DNA from: Escherichia phage Murica
Sequence record: NC_041871.1
Direction: 5' to 3' (one strand)
DNA: 64,000 bases
Shown here: positions 2,224-41,323 of the stretch, one piece after another
Layout: every line of letters starts with the position of its first letter
Numbering within the stretch: position 1 is the first letter of the stretch
Notes under the pieces: model-generated
What the model was told of the DNA's origin: nothing
Database searches by the model: none
The model's input: only the letters and a program-made list of their open reading frames with translations
Made by a program: the position numbers and the translations under genes

Positions 2224-5200
2224 TTACTTCAGTTTCTCTTGCAACCCAGTAACAACCTCTGTCAATTTTTTAACCTGCTCCTCAAGGGCGGTTATTTTAT
2301 CGTCCTGTTCCCTGCAAACCTGGACAAGCAAGCCTGTTACAGCTGCGTAGTCAACGTTATAGAACCTTTCTTCTGTTATCAAAGGAGTTCCATCTTGATC
2401 AGGATTTGGGATTTCCTTCCTTTTCACGAAAGACCCTACTGCCTCTGGCAATGCTTCCATGACCTCTTGAGCAATTACCCCCGCGTGAGGCATACCATTC
2501 TCTTTTAAAGTGTAGGTATAGCCCTTCATCTTACGGATAGCTTCCAGCGCGTTAGGAATAACCTCTATATTGTCCTTCAGGTCTCTATCAGAGCTCTGGC
2601 TCACAGTGGTGCACTCTACTACACCGTTGACAGCAAAATATCTTGACTTAGCCTCGTCTGACCTAGTGCCACAGTGGAATACCCAGCTAGCAGATGCAGC
2701 GTTGTCGTTTACCTGAAACTCAAGCACGTTCTTCCTGTCTGCGTTACCCCAATAGAACATTCTACCTGTATTGGTAGGTAAGTTATCGGCGTTGCTAGAA
2801 AGACTATTAGCACCGACATGAATTTCCAGTTGATTACTGGTTTCACCAAAAGTGTAATTAGGTCTTAACTGAATGCCTTTACCAGCATCGTGTCTCCATT
2901 CTTCCCAAGTAAAGACATCGCCAACGTAGTTACCAGCACGAGTATATCTGTCACCAAAATAGGTGATATATTCCTGCACACAACCTTGAGGTCTGTTAGC
3001 TGTGTTTTTGTAAACAAGCAGTGTACCAGCGTACGGAGCAGGGTAGTGGCGATCTATTACAAGTGCGTCAGCGTTTGAACCTTGGTGATAGAAACCTTCA
3101 CGGCTACCATCGTAGGCATTAAGGTCTTCTGTCCCCAGACCTTGACCACGGTGCTGAATAACTTTGTTCCACGCCCTGTGGTTACCACCCTCAATAGATC
3201 TGGTGTATAACTGATCAAGGCGACCAGCCATTTGGAAAGCATAGTTTCCAGAAAACGCCACAGACAGTCCACCAACAACCATCGAACCTTCCGGTCCGTT
3301 GACATTGCCAGCCATTATCTTGGAGGGGTTTGTATTACCAAACTGATTGTTCCAGTCAGCACCTGTCTGGCAAACATAGCCTCCAGGAGGGAAAAATGTG
3401 CCGTCTTTGTTGAAATTGTAGAACTTATGAGCTGTACCTACAACATCGCGAACGATAACTTGACCAGCTTCCGGAGTAGATCTGAACTCTGCCTGGCCTT
3501 GCAGTCTTGCACCATTACCACATTTAGAGGTAAAGGTGTTGTTGATCAGATCCTCTGTTCCTTCCGATGCAGCTTGGAACCCTGCGTTAGAGAACAGTGC
3601 TTTTCTAGTGGTCTGACTACCAGGACAAATGTAGTCAATACCGTCTGCCCAAAGCTCGACTTTAGGCATGTTCATTTTGCTCATCACTGCATAGCGTTCA
3701 GGAGTCCCCAGGTAGTGCCACATAGTTCCACCACCAGTGTAGAAACCTGATGTTCCTTTGAACTCAACCAGAGGTCTGGTGTTTGTTACATCATCACCTT
3801 TGATTGCAAGACTCAAATCTGCAGATTCCAGAGGAGCACAGAACTTGACACCATCTTGGTTACCTGTCACGTTGCCTACCTGCCAATCAGCCTCCCTGGT
3901 TGACACTTCTATTACAGTAGCGCCAGCATATACCGTAACAGGGAATGCACGTGCCTCTACATAGAATGCAACATACTCCTGCTTACCTCTGGTTGGAGAT
4001 ACACATCCGAGGATTGCTCTCTCGTTTTGGTAGAAATTAATAACCCCTTGGAAAGAATCACCTCTGTCTGTCCAGCCACCAGTTCTGTAGTGACACTGTA
4101 GTGTAGCACAGTTCATTGGGTCGCCGCCAGAAGAAGATCTGGTGACAATGGTTAAATCTGTCCCGATAGTTGCTGCAAAGTTGGGGTCAGTTCTGACGAT
4201 AATAGGATAATACTTACCGTCCTGCATAGCTGCAGTTCTAGGCAGGTTTACATATGGTCTAGCACCTGCTGCCAGAGGGATTCTGAATTGTGCTTGAGCA
4301 TCCCCTACAGTCCTGGCACTGGTACCACCACAAGCTATCGGTAGTGGTTCCCATTTGGCTTTCCGGTTGTTATAAACACCCCACTCAAGCGTTCCTTCAC
4401 CTTGCTCGTCCATACCGCCATCCCAAATGACCATCTTGGCGGCTTTCTTAGATCCCCAGAAACCTCTTTCTGCTCCTGAACTGCGGATCCATTCTCCAAG
4501 TCCCCAGTTTGTCAGCTGACCAGTAAGATCCCCAACCTGCATATATTTAGGGCAGTCTAATACGCCGTCTTCGCGGAAACCTAAATATTTATGAGTTTCA
4601 GATCCTTTTGCACCTTTGTGCAGGTGGATTGTCAGCCAAGCCTTATTGTCGTTTCTTACCTCAGAGTAGATCCTATATCCATGCTCAAGAACACCATCGG
4701 TGTTATATTTATCTCCATGGAGAATACCTGAGGCCGATTTAACATCTCCAGAGTATTGAGCTAAGTAAAGGTGCCCAAAGGCTGGCGAGTTGTTTTTACC
4801 AAGGCCAATATGAGATCTGAAGGTATCATCGTTACGAGGTCTGACCATCGGCTGCCATGCAGTCCACTGATTTGTGTTGGCCTGATAGGTTCTCAAATAC
4901 CAAACATCTACGTTAGAGAATGGATAGTATTCCTGACGACAACCTGTACCTCCGTTAGCATTGTTCTGCCAAACAATCAAGTGACCAGCACCAGAACCTG
5001 CAGGGTAACCATTTGCCTCGGTTGCATAAGCAGTCATCGGCTGGTAGTATACACCATCCTGATTACCAGTCAAGTTATTGATATTGAAATTTGACTCAAG
5101 AGCTGCACGTTGCTTATAGAAAGCCCCTAAGTTAATGCGTGCACCTGCGGCATCTCTGGCCCCCGTACCGCCTTGCTCTATAGCAAGAGGCTGCCACGAG

Positions 5201-8670: not shown

Positions 8671-9339
8671 TTAGATAGCTCCTGCGATAATCAGTGCCCC
8701 GTACCAAGTTAACCCGTTGTCGTAGGTTTCCAACTTGAAAATATCTGTTGCACCAGCTGTAAATGTTAGGATAGGATCTCTTCCGTAGGACCATTTAACA
8801 TTACCAGGCCAATAGACTTTGTTGCCGCCAGAGGTCTGAGTAATGCATACGGTTATAGTTCTCGCCACCCCTTCAAGACCTTCTGTTTGATTTTCAAAAG
8901 AGATTGTGGTATTTGAAGTTAGTCGAACCTTAAAGGTATCCGCAACTTCAAGATCCATATCAAGCTGACCACCGATAGATCCGTAATCAACTATTCTGCC
9001 AGAAGAAGTTGCAGCAAGCTCACCAAAAACAGACCAGGCATTTGCAGACACGCCCCCAGCACCCTCTACGGTGGAGTCTGGGAGGATTATTTTAGGATAA
9101 TCCCCGTTCCACGTGTAGTAGCGCTTAGTCTCTGGGTCATAAGCAAAGTCCTTCTTGCTCTTAAGATAACCACCCTCTGTGAAATAGACTATCTTAGTAA
9201 TACTAAGATCGTTGACAACATCGTCAATCTTAGCCTTTCTTGTCCCATCAGTCTGGTTGACAACCAAGAAGTCATCACTCAGGACTGTTTCTGCATCTTC
9301 AAGATCTGGAATTGGTATTGTAGGATAAGCTACAGCCAT
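8671..9339 (-). CDS. tail fibre-like adaptor protein (N-terminal anchor domain)
   Basis: 222 aa; its N-terminal 100 aa share a conserved pattern with the N-terminus of the 1270-aa fibre. Confidence 0.55.
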   Translation of the reverse strand: MAVAYPTIPIPDLEDAETVLSDDFLVVNQTDGTRKAKIDDVVNDLSITKIVYFTEGGYLKSKKDFAYDPETKRYYTWNGDYPKIILPDSTVEGAGGVSANAWSVFGELAATSSGRIVDYGSIGGQLDMDLEVADTFKVRLTSNTTISFENQTEGLEGVARTITVCITQTSGGNKVYWPGNVKWSYGRDPILTFTAGATDIFKLETYDNGLTWYGALIIAGAI

Positions 9340-28713: not shown

Positions 28714-28790
28714 TGGTCTCCACGGAGTGATTCGAACACTCGACCTCCTGATCCCAAATCAGGCGCTCTACCAAGCTGAGCTACGCGGAG
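28714..28790 (-). tRNA. tRNA-Pro (anticodon UGG)
   Basis: cloverleaf folded by hand: 7-bp acceptor, T-loop TTCGAAT, anticodon loop TTTGGGA, encoded CCA. Confidence 0.8.
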
Positions 28791-28801
28791 TATTTATTAT
28801 T

Positions 28802-28876
28802 TGGTGGCCCTGGGTGGAATTGAACCACCGTCTGGCGATTATGAGTCGCTTGCTTGAACCTTCCAGCTACAGGGCC
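28802..28876 (-). tRNA. tRNA-Met (anticodon CAU; could be lysidine-modified Ile)
   Basis: acceptor GGCCCTG/CAGGGCC, anticodon loop CTCATAA, T-loop TTCAATT, encoded CCA. Confidence 0.75.
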
Positions 28877-28877
28877 T

Positions 28878-28953
28878 TGGTGCTGATGGCAGGACTTGAA
28901 CCTACAACCTATTGATTACAAATCAATTGCACTACCGATTGTGCTACATCAGC
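28878..28953 (-). tRNA. tRNA-Thr (anticodon UGU)
   Basis: acceptor GCTGATG/CATCAGC, anticodon stem ATTGA/TCAAT with loop TTTGTAA, T-loop TTCAAGT, CCA. Confidence 0.8.
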
Positions 28954-28960
28954 AAAAAGG

Positions 28961-29057
28961 TGCTAGGTGATGGAATCGAACCACCTATGTATTCAACGAC
29001 TACCTCGTCTATTTTCAGGATTAAAAATCCTCGCCCTTGCCAAAGGGCTTACCTAGC
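28961..29057 (-). tRNA. atypical 97-nt tRNA-like element (anticodon unresolved, possibly UUU; very long variable region)
   Basis: perfect 7-bp acceptor pairing GCTAGGT/ACCTAGC, canonical T-arm GGTGG-TTCGATT-CCATC and D-arm, but 65 nt between; no encoded CCA. Confidence 0.45.
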
Positions 29058-29155
29058 TCAGTATGTTGACCATGTTGCTAGTCGGCGATGACGACTGTAA
29101 CATTTGATAATCCGGTTCTGCTTCCGGCTTTCGCTTAATTACAAGGTCAACAATG

Positions 29156-29246
29156 TGGCGGAGAGTAATGGAATCGAACCATCATCGAGTCATCCTCAAC
29201 GGGACGGTTTTCAAGACCGCTTGAGCACCATTGCTCCCTACCCTCC
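29156..29246 (-). tRNA. tRNA-Ser (anticodon UGA), type II
   Basis: 91 nt, acceptor GGAGGGT/ACTCTCC, anticodon loop CTTGAAA, long variable arm, T-loop TTCGATT, CCA. Confidence 0.8.
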
Positions 29247-29360
29247 TTTATAAATTATACTGATAATGACACTGATTTTCGAGCAGTTAGTGACTAGTAT
29301 AAACGACGATAAATATCAATGCCATTATCTGTATTATTTATGCATCTAAAAATATAAATT

Positions 29361-29447
29361 TGGTGGGGAGTGGTGGAGTCGAACCACCCGAGTCGCAATG
29401 ACAATAGATTTACAGTCTACACCGCTACCTCTACGGGATAACTCCCC
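29361..29447 (-). tRNA. tRNA-Tyr (anticodon GUA), type II
   Basis: 87 nt, acceptor GGGGAGT/ACTCCCC, anticodon loop CTGTAAA, long variable arm, T-loop TTCGACT, CCA. Confidence 0.8.
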
Positions 29448-29451
29448 AATT

Positions 29452-29526
29452 TGGCACCCCGTACTGGACTCGAACCAGTGTCAACGGCTTAGAAGGCCGC
29501 TGCTTTATCCACTAAGCTAACAGGGC
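29452..29526 (-). tRNA. tRNA-Arg (anticodon UCU)
   Basis: 75 nt, anticodon loop CTTCTAA, T-arm ACTGG-TTCGAGT-CCAGT, acceptor with two G-U pairs, CCA. Confidence 0.75.
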
Positions 29527-29622
29527 ACTGGGTGGCTTTCTTTTACACCTTAGCCGCCAGAAAAGGTGGGAGACCATGTTTACAATATTACACTGTTAAG
29601 CAAAGTTTGTCAAGAAAATATT

Positions 29623-29961
29623 TTAGCTATTGCTAACAGGCTGTATTTCTGTAGTAAATGGCATAAAAGGTGCTGGTTTTTCAGCCTCTTCCACTACCAC
29701 CTCTTCCTCTTCACCAAACATCTCATCATATTCTTCCTGCATTCGGTCTGCCTTATCAAGAACATACTCTGCAATGCTTTGACGAATATTTTGTTTGGTT
29801 TTCGGGTCCAACATCAGCTCTCTTAAAACTTTGTGAGCTTCTGGAACCATCGCTATAAAAGATTCCTTCATATCAAGGATGTTCTTCTCTAGCTGAATGG
29901 CGTTGGACTCCTCTTTCAGAGGTCTGCCTCTACGGCGACGCTTTTTAGTTGTATCCGCCAT
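29623..29961 (-). CDS. small protein with N-terminal AT-hook-like basic motif (KKRRRRGRP) and acidic C-terminus
   Basis: ORF track 29623..30081 trimmed to the ATG at 29959-29961, preceded by GGAGGAAAC. Confidence 0.45.
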   Translation of the reverse strand: MADTTKKRRRRGRPLKEESNAIQLEKNILDMKESFIAMVPEAHKVLRELMLDPKTKQNIRQSIAEYVLDKADRMQEEYDEMFGEEEEVVVEEAEKPAPFMPFTTEIQPVSNS

Positions 29962-30305
29962 GTTTCCTCCATTATCACGTGATAGGTGGATTTTATCATA
30001 GCAAATACTGATTGTCAAGTTCGCCGCAGGGTGGTATTCCCTGCGACTTGTCCAGCGTCCTGGACCAGCAAGACCCAACAAGTGGGTTACCAGAGCCCAT
30101 TACCGCACTTTGGCTCGACCTTATTACAGGTTGGCCGGGGTCACATCGTCATGTGCTGGCTGCCCCTACCATTTTAAGTGTGGTGCACTATCAAGCCCTC
30201 TAAGGGGAACTCAGCCTTCTCCGAACCCTGTTTCAAAGCATCCGGAGATAAAGCCATCAAATTCATCTTTAAATTGGATATTCATCATGATACACGAAAA
30301 CAACC

Positions 30306-30548
30306 TCATTGTAAAGCACAAATAAATAAAACATACTTAATTTGTTTGTTATCAGGCTCAGGGTAGAAGTAGAAGATCTTGCTATCACCGATCTGAACAC
30401 CACCATCCCAACAGCATAGCCCATAACCAGTATTCATACAAGCTAAGTCGTTGGCAAAATCTATTGCATCATCCAGTGCACGAAATTCACCTTCATCTTC
30501 TAAATAATCCTCATTCATGGAACGAAAAACGAGCTTAACCTTAAACAT
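30306..30548 (-). CDS. hypothetical small protein
   Basis: 80-aa ORF, ATG start, weak RBS. Confidence 0.35.
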   Translation of the reverse strand: MFKVKLVFRSMNEDYLEDEGEFRALDDAIDFANDLACMNTGYGLCCWDGGVQIGDSKIFYFYPEPDNKQIKYVLFICALQ

Positions 30549-30624
30549 AGCATTACCTGTAGACCTCGTAAGTTAAAATTGCATCACATCATATTGCAGA
30601 TCTTATCAGGTAACACTATTTTTG

Positions 30625-30834
30625 TCAACAGATTCCGGCCTTATCCTTCCTGTCTGCGTATTCTTTAATCGCAACCTCATCTGCATTAGTGACCAGGTCT
30701 TCAAAGTAACTCTCAAGCTCCTCGTCAATGTCAGGAGACCAGCTCTTTTTCCTGTCAGTGTGAATTGCAGACTTGTTGAACTTATTACAGTTCTTTGCTA
30801 CCGGGTTGTTCATTAAGCGCTCCTCAGCGTTCAT
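30625..30834 (-). CDS. hypothetical small protein
   Basis: 69-aa ORF, coupled to the upstream gene. Confidence 0.35.
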   Translation of the reverse strand: MNAEERLMNNPVAKNCNKFNKSAIHTDRKKSWSPDIDEELESYFEDLVTNADEVAIKEYADRKDKAGIC

Positions 30835-31402
30835 AGTAAATCTTATTTAACATTACCTCATCCTTTGCAGAAAGGATATCAAGATATGCATCACCAAATC
30901 TTCCTGCAACAACCTCTGCATGATACATCACTTCGTTAACATCGTCAAGAGTGATAACCGGATGACCATATCTTTCTGAATATTGTCTCAGGGTGCGATG
31001 TAACGAGTCGTCATCATATGCAGACTTTTTAATATCACAAACACGACGAATAGCCTTGATGTCGAAAAAACCTGTGCGATACCACCCAAGAAAAAGGTTT
31101 CGTGCAGTGTCAACATCTACATTGATACCATCAAGAACCTTATCTACAAGATAGCTGTCATCCTTTGGACCAGCGTCCTTAGTGCGAATGTAGTTGCCAT
31201 CTTTTCCAGGCGACATCTCCTTCTCATCCCCAACATGCATGCCATCATTTGGCGGTGTTAGCCACTTATCCGGATGCTTACGATCACGAGCGTTAGAATG
31301 ATTACGCTGGAAACCTGGCTTCCACTTGAAAGTTTTCTCCATCTGTTCTTCATTCTGATAACGTTTTGCAATCTTTTCACGGTCATCTTTGCGTGGACTC
31401 AT
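30824..31402 (-). CDS. hypothetical protein
   Basis: 192-aa ORF with a strong GAGGAGG RBS. Confidence 0.5.
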   Translation of the reverse strand: MSPRKDDREKIAKRYQNEEQMEKTFKWKPGFQRNHSNARDRKHPDKWLTPPNDGMHVGDEKEMSPGKDGNYIRTKDAGPKDDSYLVDKVLDGINVDVDTARNLFLGWYRTGFFDIKAIRRVCDIKKSAYDDDSLHRTLRQYSERYGHPVITLDDVNEVMYHAEVVAGRFGDAYLDILSAKDEVMLNKIYYER

Positions 31403-31884
31403 AGCTGCCTCCTCTTCAAGTTATAGAAAAACTCGCTGTATCGCTTTGTAACGAGCTTTTCTATCAAACTGGTGCGATTGCCTTACTTGGTATAGTTTAT
31501 ATGGCTGTGGAGCGATTTAGGGGCCTCATTGTCCGTTTCCACACATAAACTTTATCCAAACTCGCGCGGGAGGCTCTCAACCGACTCCTTACGGCGCTGG
31601 CAAGCTTTCGTCGGTGGTCCACATTAGTGCTCGGCCTTTGGCCTGCGCCGCTTCGCTCCCACACATGTTAACAGACCTGCATGTGTGCACTATGGAGGCC
31701 CGGCATCTCGCCCCTCGTAGGCGAGTGCCAATGAAGGGCCGACACTACCTATAGAAAGTAATAAATTTAAAACATGGTACTTAGGATCTAGTATATTCTA
31801 CATAAGTTAAGTATATGTACTTAGTACCATAAGTACTAGATCTTTTATTTTTTATTATTTAGTTATTTTAGTTATATTCTTTAT

Positions 31885-31967
31885 GTGTCCGTATCACGGA
31901 CAGTTAGTGTCCGTATTACGGGCAGATGTGTCCGCGTGACGGACAGTGGTGTCCGTATCACGGACAG
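31885..31967. repeat. four tandem copies of a palindromic 19-bp iteron (GTGTCCGTATCACGGACAG), period 21-22 bp
   Basis: copies at 31885-31903, 31907-31925, 31928-31946 and 31949-31967; each contains inverted half-sites GTCCG-N5-CGGAC. Confidence 0.85.
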
Positions 31968-32041
31968 TTAATAGTTTCTGTTCCATGGTGAACATAAAAC
32001 ATACAAACCCTTATAGTACAGATATTTAAGTTTTTACTGGT

Positions 32042-32392
32042 CTAACCAGTTGTTGACATTCGAATAACTTCTTCTGGTGGCAAAACTTTGGAAAATGTGC
32101 ATCTTTTACCTCTCCCTTGTGTGGATGTTTCAACCACTCCTGCACATTCTAAAGTTTTAACGCACGCTGCTGCTTTTGTTTTCTTTATCCCAACATCTGC
32201 TGCAATTTTCCTTGTGCTTGGTGTGAAGCGGGAATTTCCTCCAAGCTTATACCAGTTGTGCAGGTAGCAGTATACAATCTTGTCATACAAGTCAAGAACA
32301 ACAACCTCCCCAGTTGTGTCATTCAAAACTTTTGACATAGATAGTATTTCAAGGGGGACTTTAAGATATAGCAGCTTATCCCCATCTTTCAT
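32042..32392 (-). CDS. putative helix-turn-helix DNA-binding protein
   Basis: 116 aa with AGGAGAT RBS; HTH-like segment STRKIAADVGIKKTKAAACVKTLECAGVV; lies next to the iteron array. Confidence 0.4.
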   Translation of the reverse strand: MKDGDKLLYLKVPLEILSMSKVLNDTTGEVVVLDLYDKIVYCYLHNWYKLGGNSRFTPSTRKIAADVGIKKTKAAACVKTLECAGVVETSTQGRGKRCTFSKVLPPEEVIRMSTTG

Positions 32393-40191: not shown

Positions 40192-41323
40192 AGAATATCC
40201 ACTTATTGAATCTGTAGATTGTCTTGCTGATCTTCTCGAACCTGACGCTATAGTTTATTATGACTTCGACCAGGTTGCATATCAAGCTGCGGCAAGTTGT
40301 GAAAAAAGGACAATTGAGGTAACACACAAAGCCTCCGGACGTAAGAAGATGTTTAAAACACGAACAGAGTTCTGGGGTCGGCAGAAGAACACCGTTGGTG
40401 GTTGGTTAAAAGCTGAGAATACCAACCGTGAAGCCGCATGTAAAAAGTCTGGTAAGGAGTTTATTCCGTGGACACGTGAAGATTTTGATGTCTTGGATAT
40501 ACAAACACCTGACCCTGTAGAGAACTGCTTGCACACAATAAAATGTAAGGCAAATGCAGTTCTTAACTATCTTGGTATTCCGGAAGAGCGATGCGTCGGG
40601 GTGTTGGGAGGCACAGGTAACTTCAGACTAGATCTTCCAATGCCGGAAAGATACAAAGCCAACCGTAACAATACCCTTCGACCACTGCTGCTTGGAGATG
40701 CAAGACAGTATCTCCAAAAGCAGTATAATGCTCAAGTGATCAACGGTATCGAGGCTGACGACTGGTTAGCTATCCAGCAATTTGAAGGTTGGAACCACTA
40801 CCAAAAAACAGGTAAGTTCAACAAGTTTATTATCTCTATTGATAAGGACCAAAGAACACTACCGGGGCTTGTGTTCGATCCTATGCGAAACGATAAGGGA
40901 GATTTTGTAAGGGAAACCCCTATGCTGATCGATAACGGTATGGGGAACATCTTCATGAAGCCTAATGGAGAGGTTGGTGGTTACGGAATGCTGTTCTTCG
41001 GATACCAAATGCTGTGTGGTGACTCTGCTGACAATATCAAGCCGTATCAAGGACTTATCGGTAAAGGTAAGTTCGGGGATGCCTCAGCATTCTACCTGCT
41101 GTCTCAGTGCAGCACTCCAAAAGAGATGTGGGTGGCTATTATTGATCAGTACAAGAAGTGGTTCCCGAAAGGTGTTGTTAAGTATACTGACTTCAATGGT
41201 ATTGATCGTAGAATTTCCGTAGGTCAATGGATGAGTATAATTTTTGACTGTTTGTATATGAAGCGAACATTCAATGATCAAACAAAACTTGTTAACGTTC
41301 TTAGAAATGTTGGAGCAATTTGA
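40184..41323 (+). CDS. 5'-3' exonuclease / flap endonuclease (FEN/RNase H-like)
   Basis: GIEADDW acidic motif and H3TH motif CGDSADNIKPYQGLIG; TTG start after AGGAGGGG. Confidence 0.65.
   Translation: MSREYPLIESVDCLADLLEPDAIVYYDFDQVAYQAAASCEKRTIEVTHKASGRKKMFKTRTEFWGRQKNTVGGWLKAENTNREAACKKSGKEFIPWTREDFDVLDIQTPDPVENCLHTIKCKANAVLNYLGIPEERCVGVLGGTGNFRLDLPMPERYKANRNNTLRPLLLGDARQYLQKQYNAQVINGIEADDWLAIQQFEGWNHYQKTGKFNKFIISIDKDQRTLPGLVFDPMRNDKGDFVRETPMLIDNGMGNIFMKPNGEVGGYGMLFFGYQMLCGDSADNIKPYQGLIGKGKFGDASAFYLLSQCSTPKEMWVAIIDQYKKWFPKGVVKYTDFNGIDRRISVGQWMSIIFDCLYMKRTFNDQTKLVNVLRNVGAI

Follow-up and report, generated by a model that had tools for sequence, protein, structure and literature searches.

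The window analysed here, the whole stretch of 64,000 nucleotides from Escherichia phage Murica (sequence record NC_041871.1), was that of an rV5-like coliphage, a myovirus (Vequintavirus). The region from 29600 to 30700 showed 99-99.7% identity with phages such as navn and 95-99% identity with approximately 117 records, and the genes around it were all on the minus strand (Table 1). The 32-aa ORF was found to be translationally coupled to the upstream 80-aa gene through an ATGA overlap with the stop of that gene. Comparison with the diverged contig L095 showed four differences in this ORF, all four of them synonymous, which indicated that it is a real gene and hence that the RNA described below begins past its stop codon. 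In a sister vequinta-like lineage the ORF has shrunk to 8 aa (MKDEFDGF) with its own Shine-Dalgarno sequence, and Cronobacter phage CR8 likewise encodes the DEFDGF motif. The promoter on the 3' side of the gap serves the 112-aa K/R-rich gene, forms the 3' limit of the RNA unit and is kept in both vequinta-like lineages. The proteins encoded on both flanks belonged only to families of unknown function and gave no functional clue.

A preliminary description of the locus had given the gap between the minus-strand genes as 343 bp, holding only short overlapping ORFs in different frames. The gap is indeed bounded by minus-strand genes and measures 344 nt; since relatives annotate the 32-aa ORF, its truly non-coding part is 29962-30210, and the statement on the ORFs applies to that part but not to the 32-aa coding ORF beside it. 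The GC-rich stretch described there was confirmed, with a GC content of 0.53-0.55 over 30000-30250 against approximately 0.41 in the flanks; the approximately 190 nt of GC-rich non-coding sequence between the 32-aa ORF and the early promoter had 55% GC compared to 41%. Of the two hairpins named, GTCCAG-CGTC-CTGGAC was located exactly at 30050-30065, and CGCAGGG-N7-CCCTGCG was present at 30025-30045, one base off the reported 30024-30044. The tRNA cluster that had been described as nearby lies downstream on the same strand.

Within this cluster, a 99-nt tRNA-like gene at 28959-29057 (minus strand) received a 4-base anticodon call (ARAGORN '???'; Rfam tRNA 35.5 bits). It is annotated as tRNA-OTHER or tRNA-Lys in relatives, and a similar long tRNA-like sequence was seen in other Vequintavirinae arrays (L071, L074 and L076). 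A second GC-rich (up to 0.61) non-coding gap was found at 31400-32045, upstream of a putative replication-initiation or regulator gene. This gap was conserved in Vequintavirus only (88-100%), where relatives annotate tandem repeat regions, had no T4-like match and may be an origin or iteron region.

Table 1. Features of the element and its neighbourhood in the window.
Feature	Position	Strand	Remarks
80-aa gene	30306-30548	minus	First in transcription order
Small coding ORF, 32 aa (...KDEFDGF...)	30211-30309	minus	Annotated in relatives; outside the RNA and its 5' bound
Gap between annotated genes	29962-30305		344 nt
5' module GUUCCCCUUAGAGGGCUUGAUAGUGCACCACACUUAAAAUGGUA	30167-30210	minus	Begins directly past the stop codon of the 32-aa ORF
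Hairpin H1	30137-30166	minus	Outer stem GGGG/CCCC, 5' internal loop CAGCCAG, inner hairpin CACAU-GACG-AUGUG
Conserved core domain	30091-30140	minus	50 nt; P2, P3, invariant strand, P4 and GGUAA
P2	30132-30136 with 30093-30099	minus	Part of core; 3-5 bp in the window
P3 (ACC/GGU)		minus	Part of core; inside P2
Invariant strand UGUAAUAAGGUCGA	30115-30128	minus	Part of core
P4, small hairpin GC-CAAAGU-GC	30105-30114	minus	Part of core
GGUAA	30100-30104	minus	Part of core; directly after P4
Hairpin B, CCCA-CUUGU-UGGG	30074-30086	minus	Lineage-specific; in MFE and centroid folds
Hairpin C, GUCCAG-GACG-CUGGAC	30050-30065	minus	Second hairpin of the preliminary description
Hairpin D, GUCGCAGGG-AAUACCA-CCCUGCGGC	30023-30047	minus	First hairpin of the preliminary description
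Sigma-70-type promoter TTGACA-N17-TAAAAT (with TG)	29990-30018	minus	11/12 matches
112-aa K/R-rich gene	29623-29961	minus	Another promoter after it, then the tRNA cluster
Cluster of seven tRNA genes	28714-29526	minus	565 nt downstream of core

A covariance model of the core (R1) produced one strong match in the 64-kb window, at 30091-30140 with 68.7 bits and an E-value of 7e-21. A weak match at 40427-40464 on the plus strand (12.2 bits, E 0.31) is probably noise. The stretch 30091-30166 showed the full motif, that is, an invariant core, pairable P2 and P4, a P4 of GC/GC and H1 within 3 nt of P2. The 5' module was identical in the second vequinta-like lineage (L039/41/42/51/56). On the 3' side, hairpin B was deleted in L065 and had an altered loop in L095, and it is therefore probably dispensable. 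Hairpin C reads GCUCAG-GACG-CUGAGC in L095, where two pairs were changed on both sides (double compensatory), and a U-A pair became U-G in L018 and L046 with pairing kept. Hairpin D, in which relatives differ in the loop only, forms 9 bp including one G-U on the minus strand and only 7 bp on the plus strand, and it ends 5 nt ahead of the -35 of the strong promoter. It was not an intrinsic terminator, as no U-tract follows (GCGAACUUGACA comes next) and the terminator scan called none in 29962-30310. No tRNA or tRNA-like gene was called in 29962-30210 with ARAGORN or RF00005. In addition, the window RNA, its relatives and the T4-like 3' domain have repeated GGA triplets within hairpin loops or at their edges (AGGACG, GGGAAU, GCCAUGGAAUGGC and AUGGA), which may resemble CsrA-binding sites.

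The minimum free energy z-score was -1.75 for the 192-nt unit (30019-30210), and for 349 nt it was -1.9 on the minus strand and -1.4 on the plus strand. Folding energy alone is weak evidence, because these values are only modestly better than shuffles. The RNA of the gap was lifted above chance by the compensatory changes in hairpin C and by the conservation of the core across unrelated phages.

A sensitive BLAST search of the gap against phage genomes showed matches in rV5-like phages and, unexpectedly, in approximately 860 T4-like phages. The T4-like phages, which included Tequatrovirus, Mosigvirus, Jiaodavirus, Gelderlandvirus and others, matched 43 nt (window 30096-30138) with 90-97% identity, once per genome, in unannotated intergenic sequence and in gene orientation. 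The site preceded vs.8 and followed ip4, denV or other variable genes, at approximately 6 kb from the tRNA cluster. These phages carry an extra conserved 3' domain (..AUGGA.., GCCAWGGAAYGGCCC) before vs.8, with a compensatory change of ACAUA/UAUGU versus ACAUU/AAUGU. In T4 itself, the copy is at approximately 64,819-64,938 of NC_000866.4, immediately after the denV stop and before the MRTF start of vs.8, and the GenBank annotation of vs.8 covers it with its first 40 codons. This 5' extension was not conserved, as other T4-like phages start at MRTF and do not keep the frame. The annotated CDS has 219 aa, and the homologues and PHROG 1488 start at MRTFLTG, which gives 179 aa; the stretch in question corresponds to 1794-1913 of the T4 locus L028, or 64,793-64,912 of the record. 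The vs.8 CDS of T4 appears to be annotated 40 codons too long, so that it runs across the RNA element.

Exact-pattern scans of IMG/VR and metagenomes showed the core in two T4-like subtypes, the rV5-like lineage, the second vequinta-like lineage, phAPEC8-like phages, the 44-kb phage EcoPhCCP1 and a relative of Pseudoalteromonas phages. Approximately 12-15 further environmental phage lineages, including a 360-kb jumbo phage contig, were recovered with a relaxed pattern (ACCTGTAAYAAGGTC-N9-13-GGTAA). Overall, the core (ACC-UGUAAYAAGGUC..-small hairpin-GGUAA) was found in approximately 20 phage lineages beyond the rV5-like and T4-like phages, and approximately 24 lineages were tallied for context. 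No divergent copies were found in the other Vequintavirinae Mydovirus, Henunavirus, Seunavirus, Certrevirus and Avunavirus. The strict pattern had no match in 185,579 bacterial and archaeal species genomes (GTDB), and the 10 matches of the relaxed pattern in 596 Gb of those genomes were approximately the number expected by chance, in unrelated sequence and all without the helices. E. coli genomes had no match to the element. The lack of any true match in bacterial and archaeal genomes indicated a phage element and not one derived from the host.

In the sister lineage, a promoter TTGACA-N17-TATACT ends approximately 7 nt upstream of the 5' module, and this own consensus promoter suggests that the RNA is an independent transcription unit there. 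In this lineage every pair of the H1 inner stem was exchanged; the GACG loop and the core were the same as in the window, and the 3' part differed.

The lineages shared the module order H1 - P2 - ACC - UGUAAYAAGGUC(N)A - P4 - GGUAA - P2', which spans approximately 80 nt. H1 was directly 5' of P2 in every lineage and showed compensatory differences. In most lineages it was built of an outer stem, a 5' internal loop often starting with CAG and an inner hairpin, with sequences that differed and remained complementary, such as GGAA-CAGGAGGG-CUACG-GACG-CGUAG-GG-UUCC, GCGU-CAGGGUA-CAUG-GAAA-CAUG-A-ACGC and GUGC-..-CAUC-GAAA-GAUG-..-GCAC. Compensatory changes within clades included CCUCAU/AUGAGG to CCUUAU/AUAAGG and CAUG/CAUG to CAUC/GAUG. 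P2 had 3-6 bp of a sequence that differed by lineage, often with one bulged G in the 3' strand. Its first pair, among 32 distinct diverse members, was A-U in 13, U-A in 11, C-G in 4, U-G in 3 and G-C in 1, with no mismatches. For the pair flanking ACC...GGU, the 27 gap-free core sequences had AU (16), UG (5), CG (3), GC (1), UA (1) and one non-pair. The covariation score of the pair next to P3 was reached by none of 500 shuffles of 27 sequences, and pairing fell to 20-37% in slid registers.

The P4 hairpin had 2-4 bp and a loop of 3-6 nt that was free to vary. Among the same 32 members its closing pair was G-C in 30 and A-U in 2, and its second pair was C-G in 19, U-A in 9 and G-C in 4; L095 showed the swap of a P4 pair to G-C from C-G. 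P3 (ACC/GGU) and the 13-14-nt strand UGUAAYAAGGUC(N)A were invariant among the members collected, with patterns that fixed ACC...GGUAA and under which variation there could not show. These parts are neutral on covariation because they never vary, partly through the construction of the patterns, and the covariation support rests chiefly on P2 and the second pair of P4. The alternative hairpin ACCU/AGGU, in which ACC pairs with the first GGU, was 99% pairable and never varied. A global model was attempted with RNAalifold on the two vequinta-like lineages and was rejected as unstable, because their 3' parts do not align.

The orientation of the element was that of the gene strand in all members, and the G-U pairs were on the gene strand only. 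The would-be wobble positions of the core were also invariant and no ORF was conserved across lineages. The invariance of the core together with covarying helices on the gene strand argues for a functional RNA and not a DNA site or a coding sequence.

Same-strand tRNA genes were present within 1 kb of the element in approximately 15 of approximately 24 lineages, and several elements were between two tRNAs or 45-175 nt from one. In one contig the element was just downstream of a tRNA array and was followed by an uncalled tRNA-like sequence. Other Vequintavirinae genera had tRNA-Cys or tRNA-Leu at the position of the element and lacked the motif. A homologue of the 112-aa K/R-rich protein (PHROG 3330) was encoded inside the tRNA arrays of several Vequintavirinae genera (KpS8, SSE121, Hena1, 4MG and CR8; L071-L075), and this placement suggests a tRNA-related role for the protein. 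Long unannotated GC-rich stretches between the tRNAs of these five loci may hold other RNAs.

The preliminary description had proposed an Rfam scan. With Rfam 15, using gathering scores and permissive E-values (membership by gathering score or an E-value below approximately 1), no family was found at the element in the window, the T4-like loci, the sister lineage or 15 environmental members, and the matches elsewhere in those loci were limited to tRNAs, a single group I intron and a single abiF RNA. By analogy with the small stable RNAs that T4 carries next to its tRNA genes, the same description had suggested a structured RNA in the gap. The comparisons support such an RNA, namely a conserved one with covarying helices on the gene strand whose family recurs in phage tRNA arrays. 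The analogy with T4 rnaC and rnaD holds in position, since all are non-tRNA phage RNAs on the same strand as, and next to, a tRNA cluster, and presumably cut from the same precursors as the tRNAs. It does not extend to homology, as the best local alignments had 7-18 columns with scores of 13-19. In contrast to the element, rnaC ends in a tRNA-like T-arm GGTTCGAATCC, and the T4 relative of the element is elsewhere, between denV and vs.8. The two hairpins named in that description exist but belong to a variable 3' periphery, whereas the conserved and putatively functional core is 30091-30166.

ROOL and GOLLD are large ornate RNAs of phages and prophages near tRNAs, of 500-800 nt, and have Rfam families. 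The element resembles them in being phage-associated, adjoining tRNAs and having no known function, but its module has approximately 80 nt (100-190 nt with the periphery) and is without an Rfam match. Mimicry of the 16S rRNA 3' minor domain was rejected: GUAACAAGGU is identical to 16S 1497-1506 at 10/10 positions in the C-variants, but the scores equalled the shuffled-core mean. The CUGUAA of the core presumably resembles the tRNA-Tyr anticodon loop, over 6 nt only. Likewise, what we took for resemblances to the E. coli type I-E CRISPR repeat GAGTTCCCC, 4.5S RNA, tmRNA, RNase P and the tRNA-Tyr D-arm were either absent in the sister lineage or too short, and were discarded. According to a review of T4 from 2010 (PMC3014915), the roles of rnaC and rnaD were unknown, and neither a riboswitch nor a trans-acting RNA had been characterised in this phage. 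The T4 transcriptome paper did not mention the denV-vs.8 region. A literature search of incomplete coverage found neither the core sequence nor an RNA between denV and vs.8, and an earlier description is possible.

From the sequence comparisons, we conclude that the segment encodes a functional structured RNA of an apparently undescribed family. The favoured explanation, with a probability of roughly 45%, is that it is a stable small RNA, belonging to a widespread phage family that appears to be uncatalogued, and acts by binding a conserved factor. The RNA would be made within early or tRNA-region transcripts, in the window as the 3' part of the transcript of the 80-aa/32-aa operon and in the sister lineage from its own sigma-70 promoter. 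Each lineage supplements the shared module with a periphery of its own, which in the window consists of the 5' module together with hairpins B-D. The element may then be trimmed, by the same nucleases that act on the tRNAs beside it, to a putatively stable small RNA of approximately 100-190 nt. Presented on the stack of P3 and P4, the invariant single strand would bind a factor that is conserved among hosts or among phages. The most plausible candidate is a protein of the tRNA or translation machinery, for which the element would be a decoy or a partner in an RNA-protein complex. As approximately 25 nt are near-invariant across phages of different hosts, recognition of a conserved partner is suggested rather than simple base-pairing. 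The stable small RNA is favoured because one lineage keeps a promoter of its own, and a leader specific to one gene is disfavoured because the downstream elements are too heterogeneous. Against the stable RNA stand the modest z-score and the lack of a canonical terminator after the element. In the T4-like phages and the window, where the element is inside a longer transcript, a cis-acting role fits equally well.

The element may alternatively be a new small self-cleaving or catalytic RNA, which cuts early or tRNA-array transcripts in cis and helps to free the tRNAs or mRNAs. The element has a compact fold in which approximately 25 nt are near-invariant, the peripheral stems vary and the loops are free, as is typical of small ribozymes, and many lineages carry it between tRNA genes. 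Ribozymes of the HDV-like 'theta' and hammerhead types occur next to phage tRNAs and are similar to the element as small conserved structured RNAs within phage tRNA arrays. In one clade, compensatory changes (GGGUA/UACCC, GGGAG/CUCCC and GGGUA/UAUCC) hinted at a pseudoknot in which the internal loop of H1 pairs with the 3' tail. However, the duplex energies of this pseudoknot across lineages were no better than shuffles (Fisher p 0.08-0.12), and no Rfam ribozyme model matched the element. Its topology is unlike HDV, hammerhead, twister and pistol; HDV-like RNAs form a nested double pseudoknot, whereas the helix order of the element is H1-P2-P3-J-P4-P3'-P2'. In addition, host RNase P and RNase E normally process tRNA arrays, for which ribozymes are not needed. 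Catalysis by the element is unlikely on this balance.

A ligand-sensing, riboswitch-like aptamer that controls read-through or translation downstream, of vs.8 in the T4-like phages and of the K/R-rich gene and tRNA array in the window, is improbable. The highly conserved core closed by a covarying helix would suit an aptamer, as would the two exclusive pairings of ACC, with the GGU at 30108-30110 or the GGU in the 30100-30102 region, and the conserved 3' domain of the T4-like phages directly before the ribosome-binding site of vs.8. On the other hand, what lies downstream differs wholly by lineage (vs.8, another ORF, tRNAs or a strong promoter within 5-20 nt), and the sister lineage has its own promoter and a second promoter for the next gene. 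No terminator or platform sequestering a ribosome-binding site, as expected of a riboswitch, was recognisable.

The T4-type PeSL ('promoter-early stem-loop') is a unit of a promoter plus a hairpin. A further explanation is a cis-acting transcript-boundary cassette, in which stem-loops that halt or stabilise the mRNA upstream are followed by an early promoter; it would have spread between phages by recombination, and its core would have no function of its own. The stem-loop of the window directly upstream of an early sigma-70-type promoter (hairpin D and TTGACA) resembles a PeSL, a like arrangement was present in the sister lineage and EcoPhCCP1, and the signs of modular exchange agree with it, since the 43 nt shared between unrelated phages at 90-97% identity indicate horizontal exchange. 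However, the hairpins nearest the promoter were the least conserved part, and the core is not a terminator and persists without a promoter after it, both between tRNAs and before vs.8. The element also differs from PeSLs in its large invariant non-promoter core, its covarying helices and its association with tRNA arrays, and a single-stranded 14-mer that is near-invariant in approximately 24 lineages is unlike a generic stem-loop cassette. Such a cassette is unlikely, and quite improbable in our judgement.

A site acting at the DNA level, as the target of a binding protein, of recombination or of a homing endonuclease, is very unlikely. Its extreme primary-sequence conservation and the evidence of lateral transfer would be expected of such a site, as would its place in the T4-like phages at the edge of a hypervariable region (ip genes and denV), but the compensatory changes preserve RNA helices, some with G-U pairs whose counterpart in the opposite strand would be A-C, and the element is always oriented with transcription. 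It is extremely unlikely that either strand encodes a short protein here. In favour of one, the region is overlapped by plus-strand ORFs of 63-71 aa, a single record has a 55-aa plus-strand CDS annotated there and the T4 vs.8 annotation runs through the T4 copy. However, indels break the frames between the two vequinta-like lineages, so that the ORFs lack conservation, and the core does not vary at any of the three codon positions. Other T4-like phages do not keep the T4 frame open or in register, and the vs.8 family profile starts at MRTF. It is the neighbouring 32-aa ORF, by contrast, that shows synonymous-only change.

Beyond the stable small RNA favoured here, it is possible, if rather doubtful, that the element represents a new class of functional RNA fold, which lytic phages of many hosts would keep within their tRNA arrays. 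Such a fold could be that of a small ribozyme, or that of an aptamer or decoy with high affinity for a tRNA or translation factor of universal conservation. If so, its T4 copy would have been overlooked for decades because it was hidden under the over-extended annotation of vs.8. Phage tRNA arrays are currently read as sustaining translation when the host or its defences destroy tRNAs. A near-invariant non-tRNA RNA in the arrays of at least 20 unrelated phage lineages suggests a further function of the arrays, and under the reading of a new fold the arrays would carry it as cargo of a second kind, such as a means of countering host defences that target tRNAs. As T4 carries the element, and so do rV5-like and phAPEC8-like coliphages that are easily grown, the role of small RNAs in phage tRNA regions becomes testable with a defined target of 50 nt. 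The finding also corrects the start of T4 vs.8 and supplies a seed alignment for a new RNA family.

Further features were observed close to individual copies of the element. In L082, an Rfam abiF RNA motif (3624-3655, minus strand; 45.4 bits with a gathering score of 37) adjoins tRNA-Asn approximately 480 nt upstream of the element, and the environmental phage contig L093 has a group I intron (4112-4333, minus strand; 90.9 bits) 2.4 kb from its element. In EcoPhCCP1 (L031 at approximately 2340-2470, minus strand, and L040 at approximately 9195-9330), a TTGACA promoter comes directly after the element and a strong intrinsic terminator (CCCGGC..GCCGGG and U8) follows approximately 100 nt after that promoter; the two possibly bound an RNA of roughly 70-100 nt containing CACCUCC. 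Finally, a stretch of 48 nt in L043 (1709-1756), approximately 200 nt upstream of its element, showed 94% identity to unannotated sites in the jumbo phages Klebsiella N1M2 and Serratia Sureiya and may be another shared small element.
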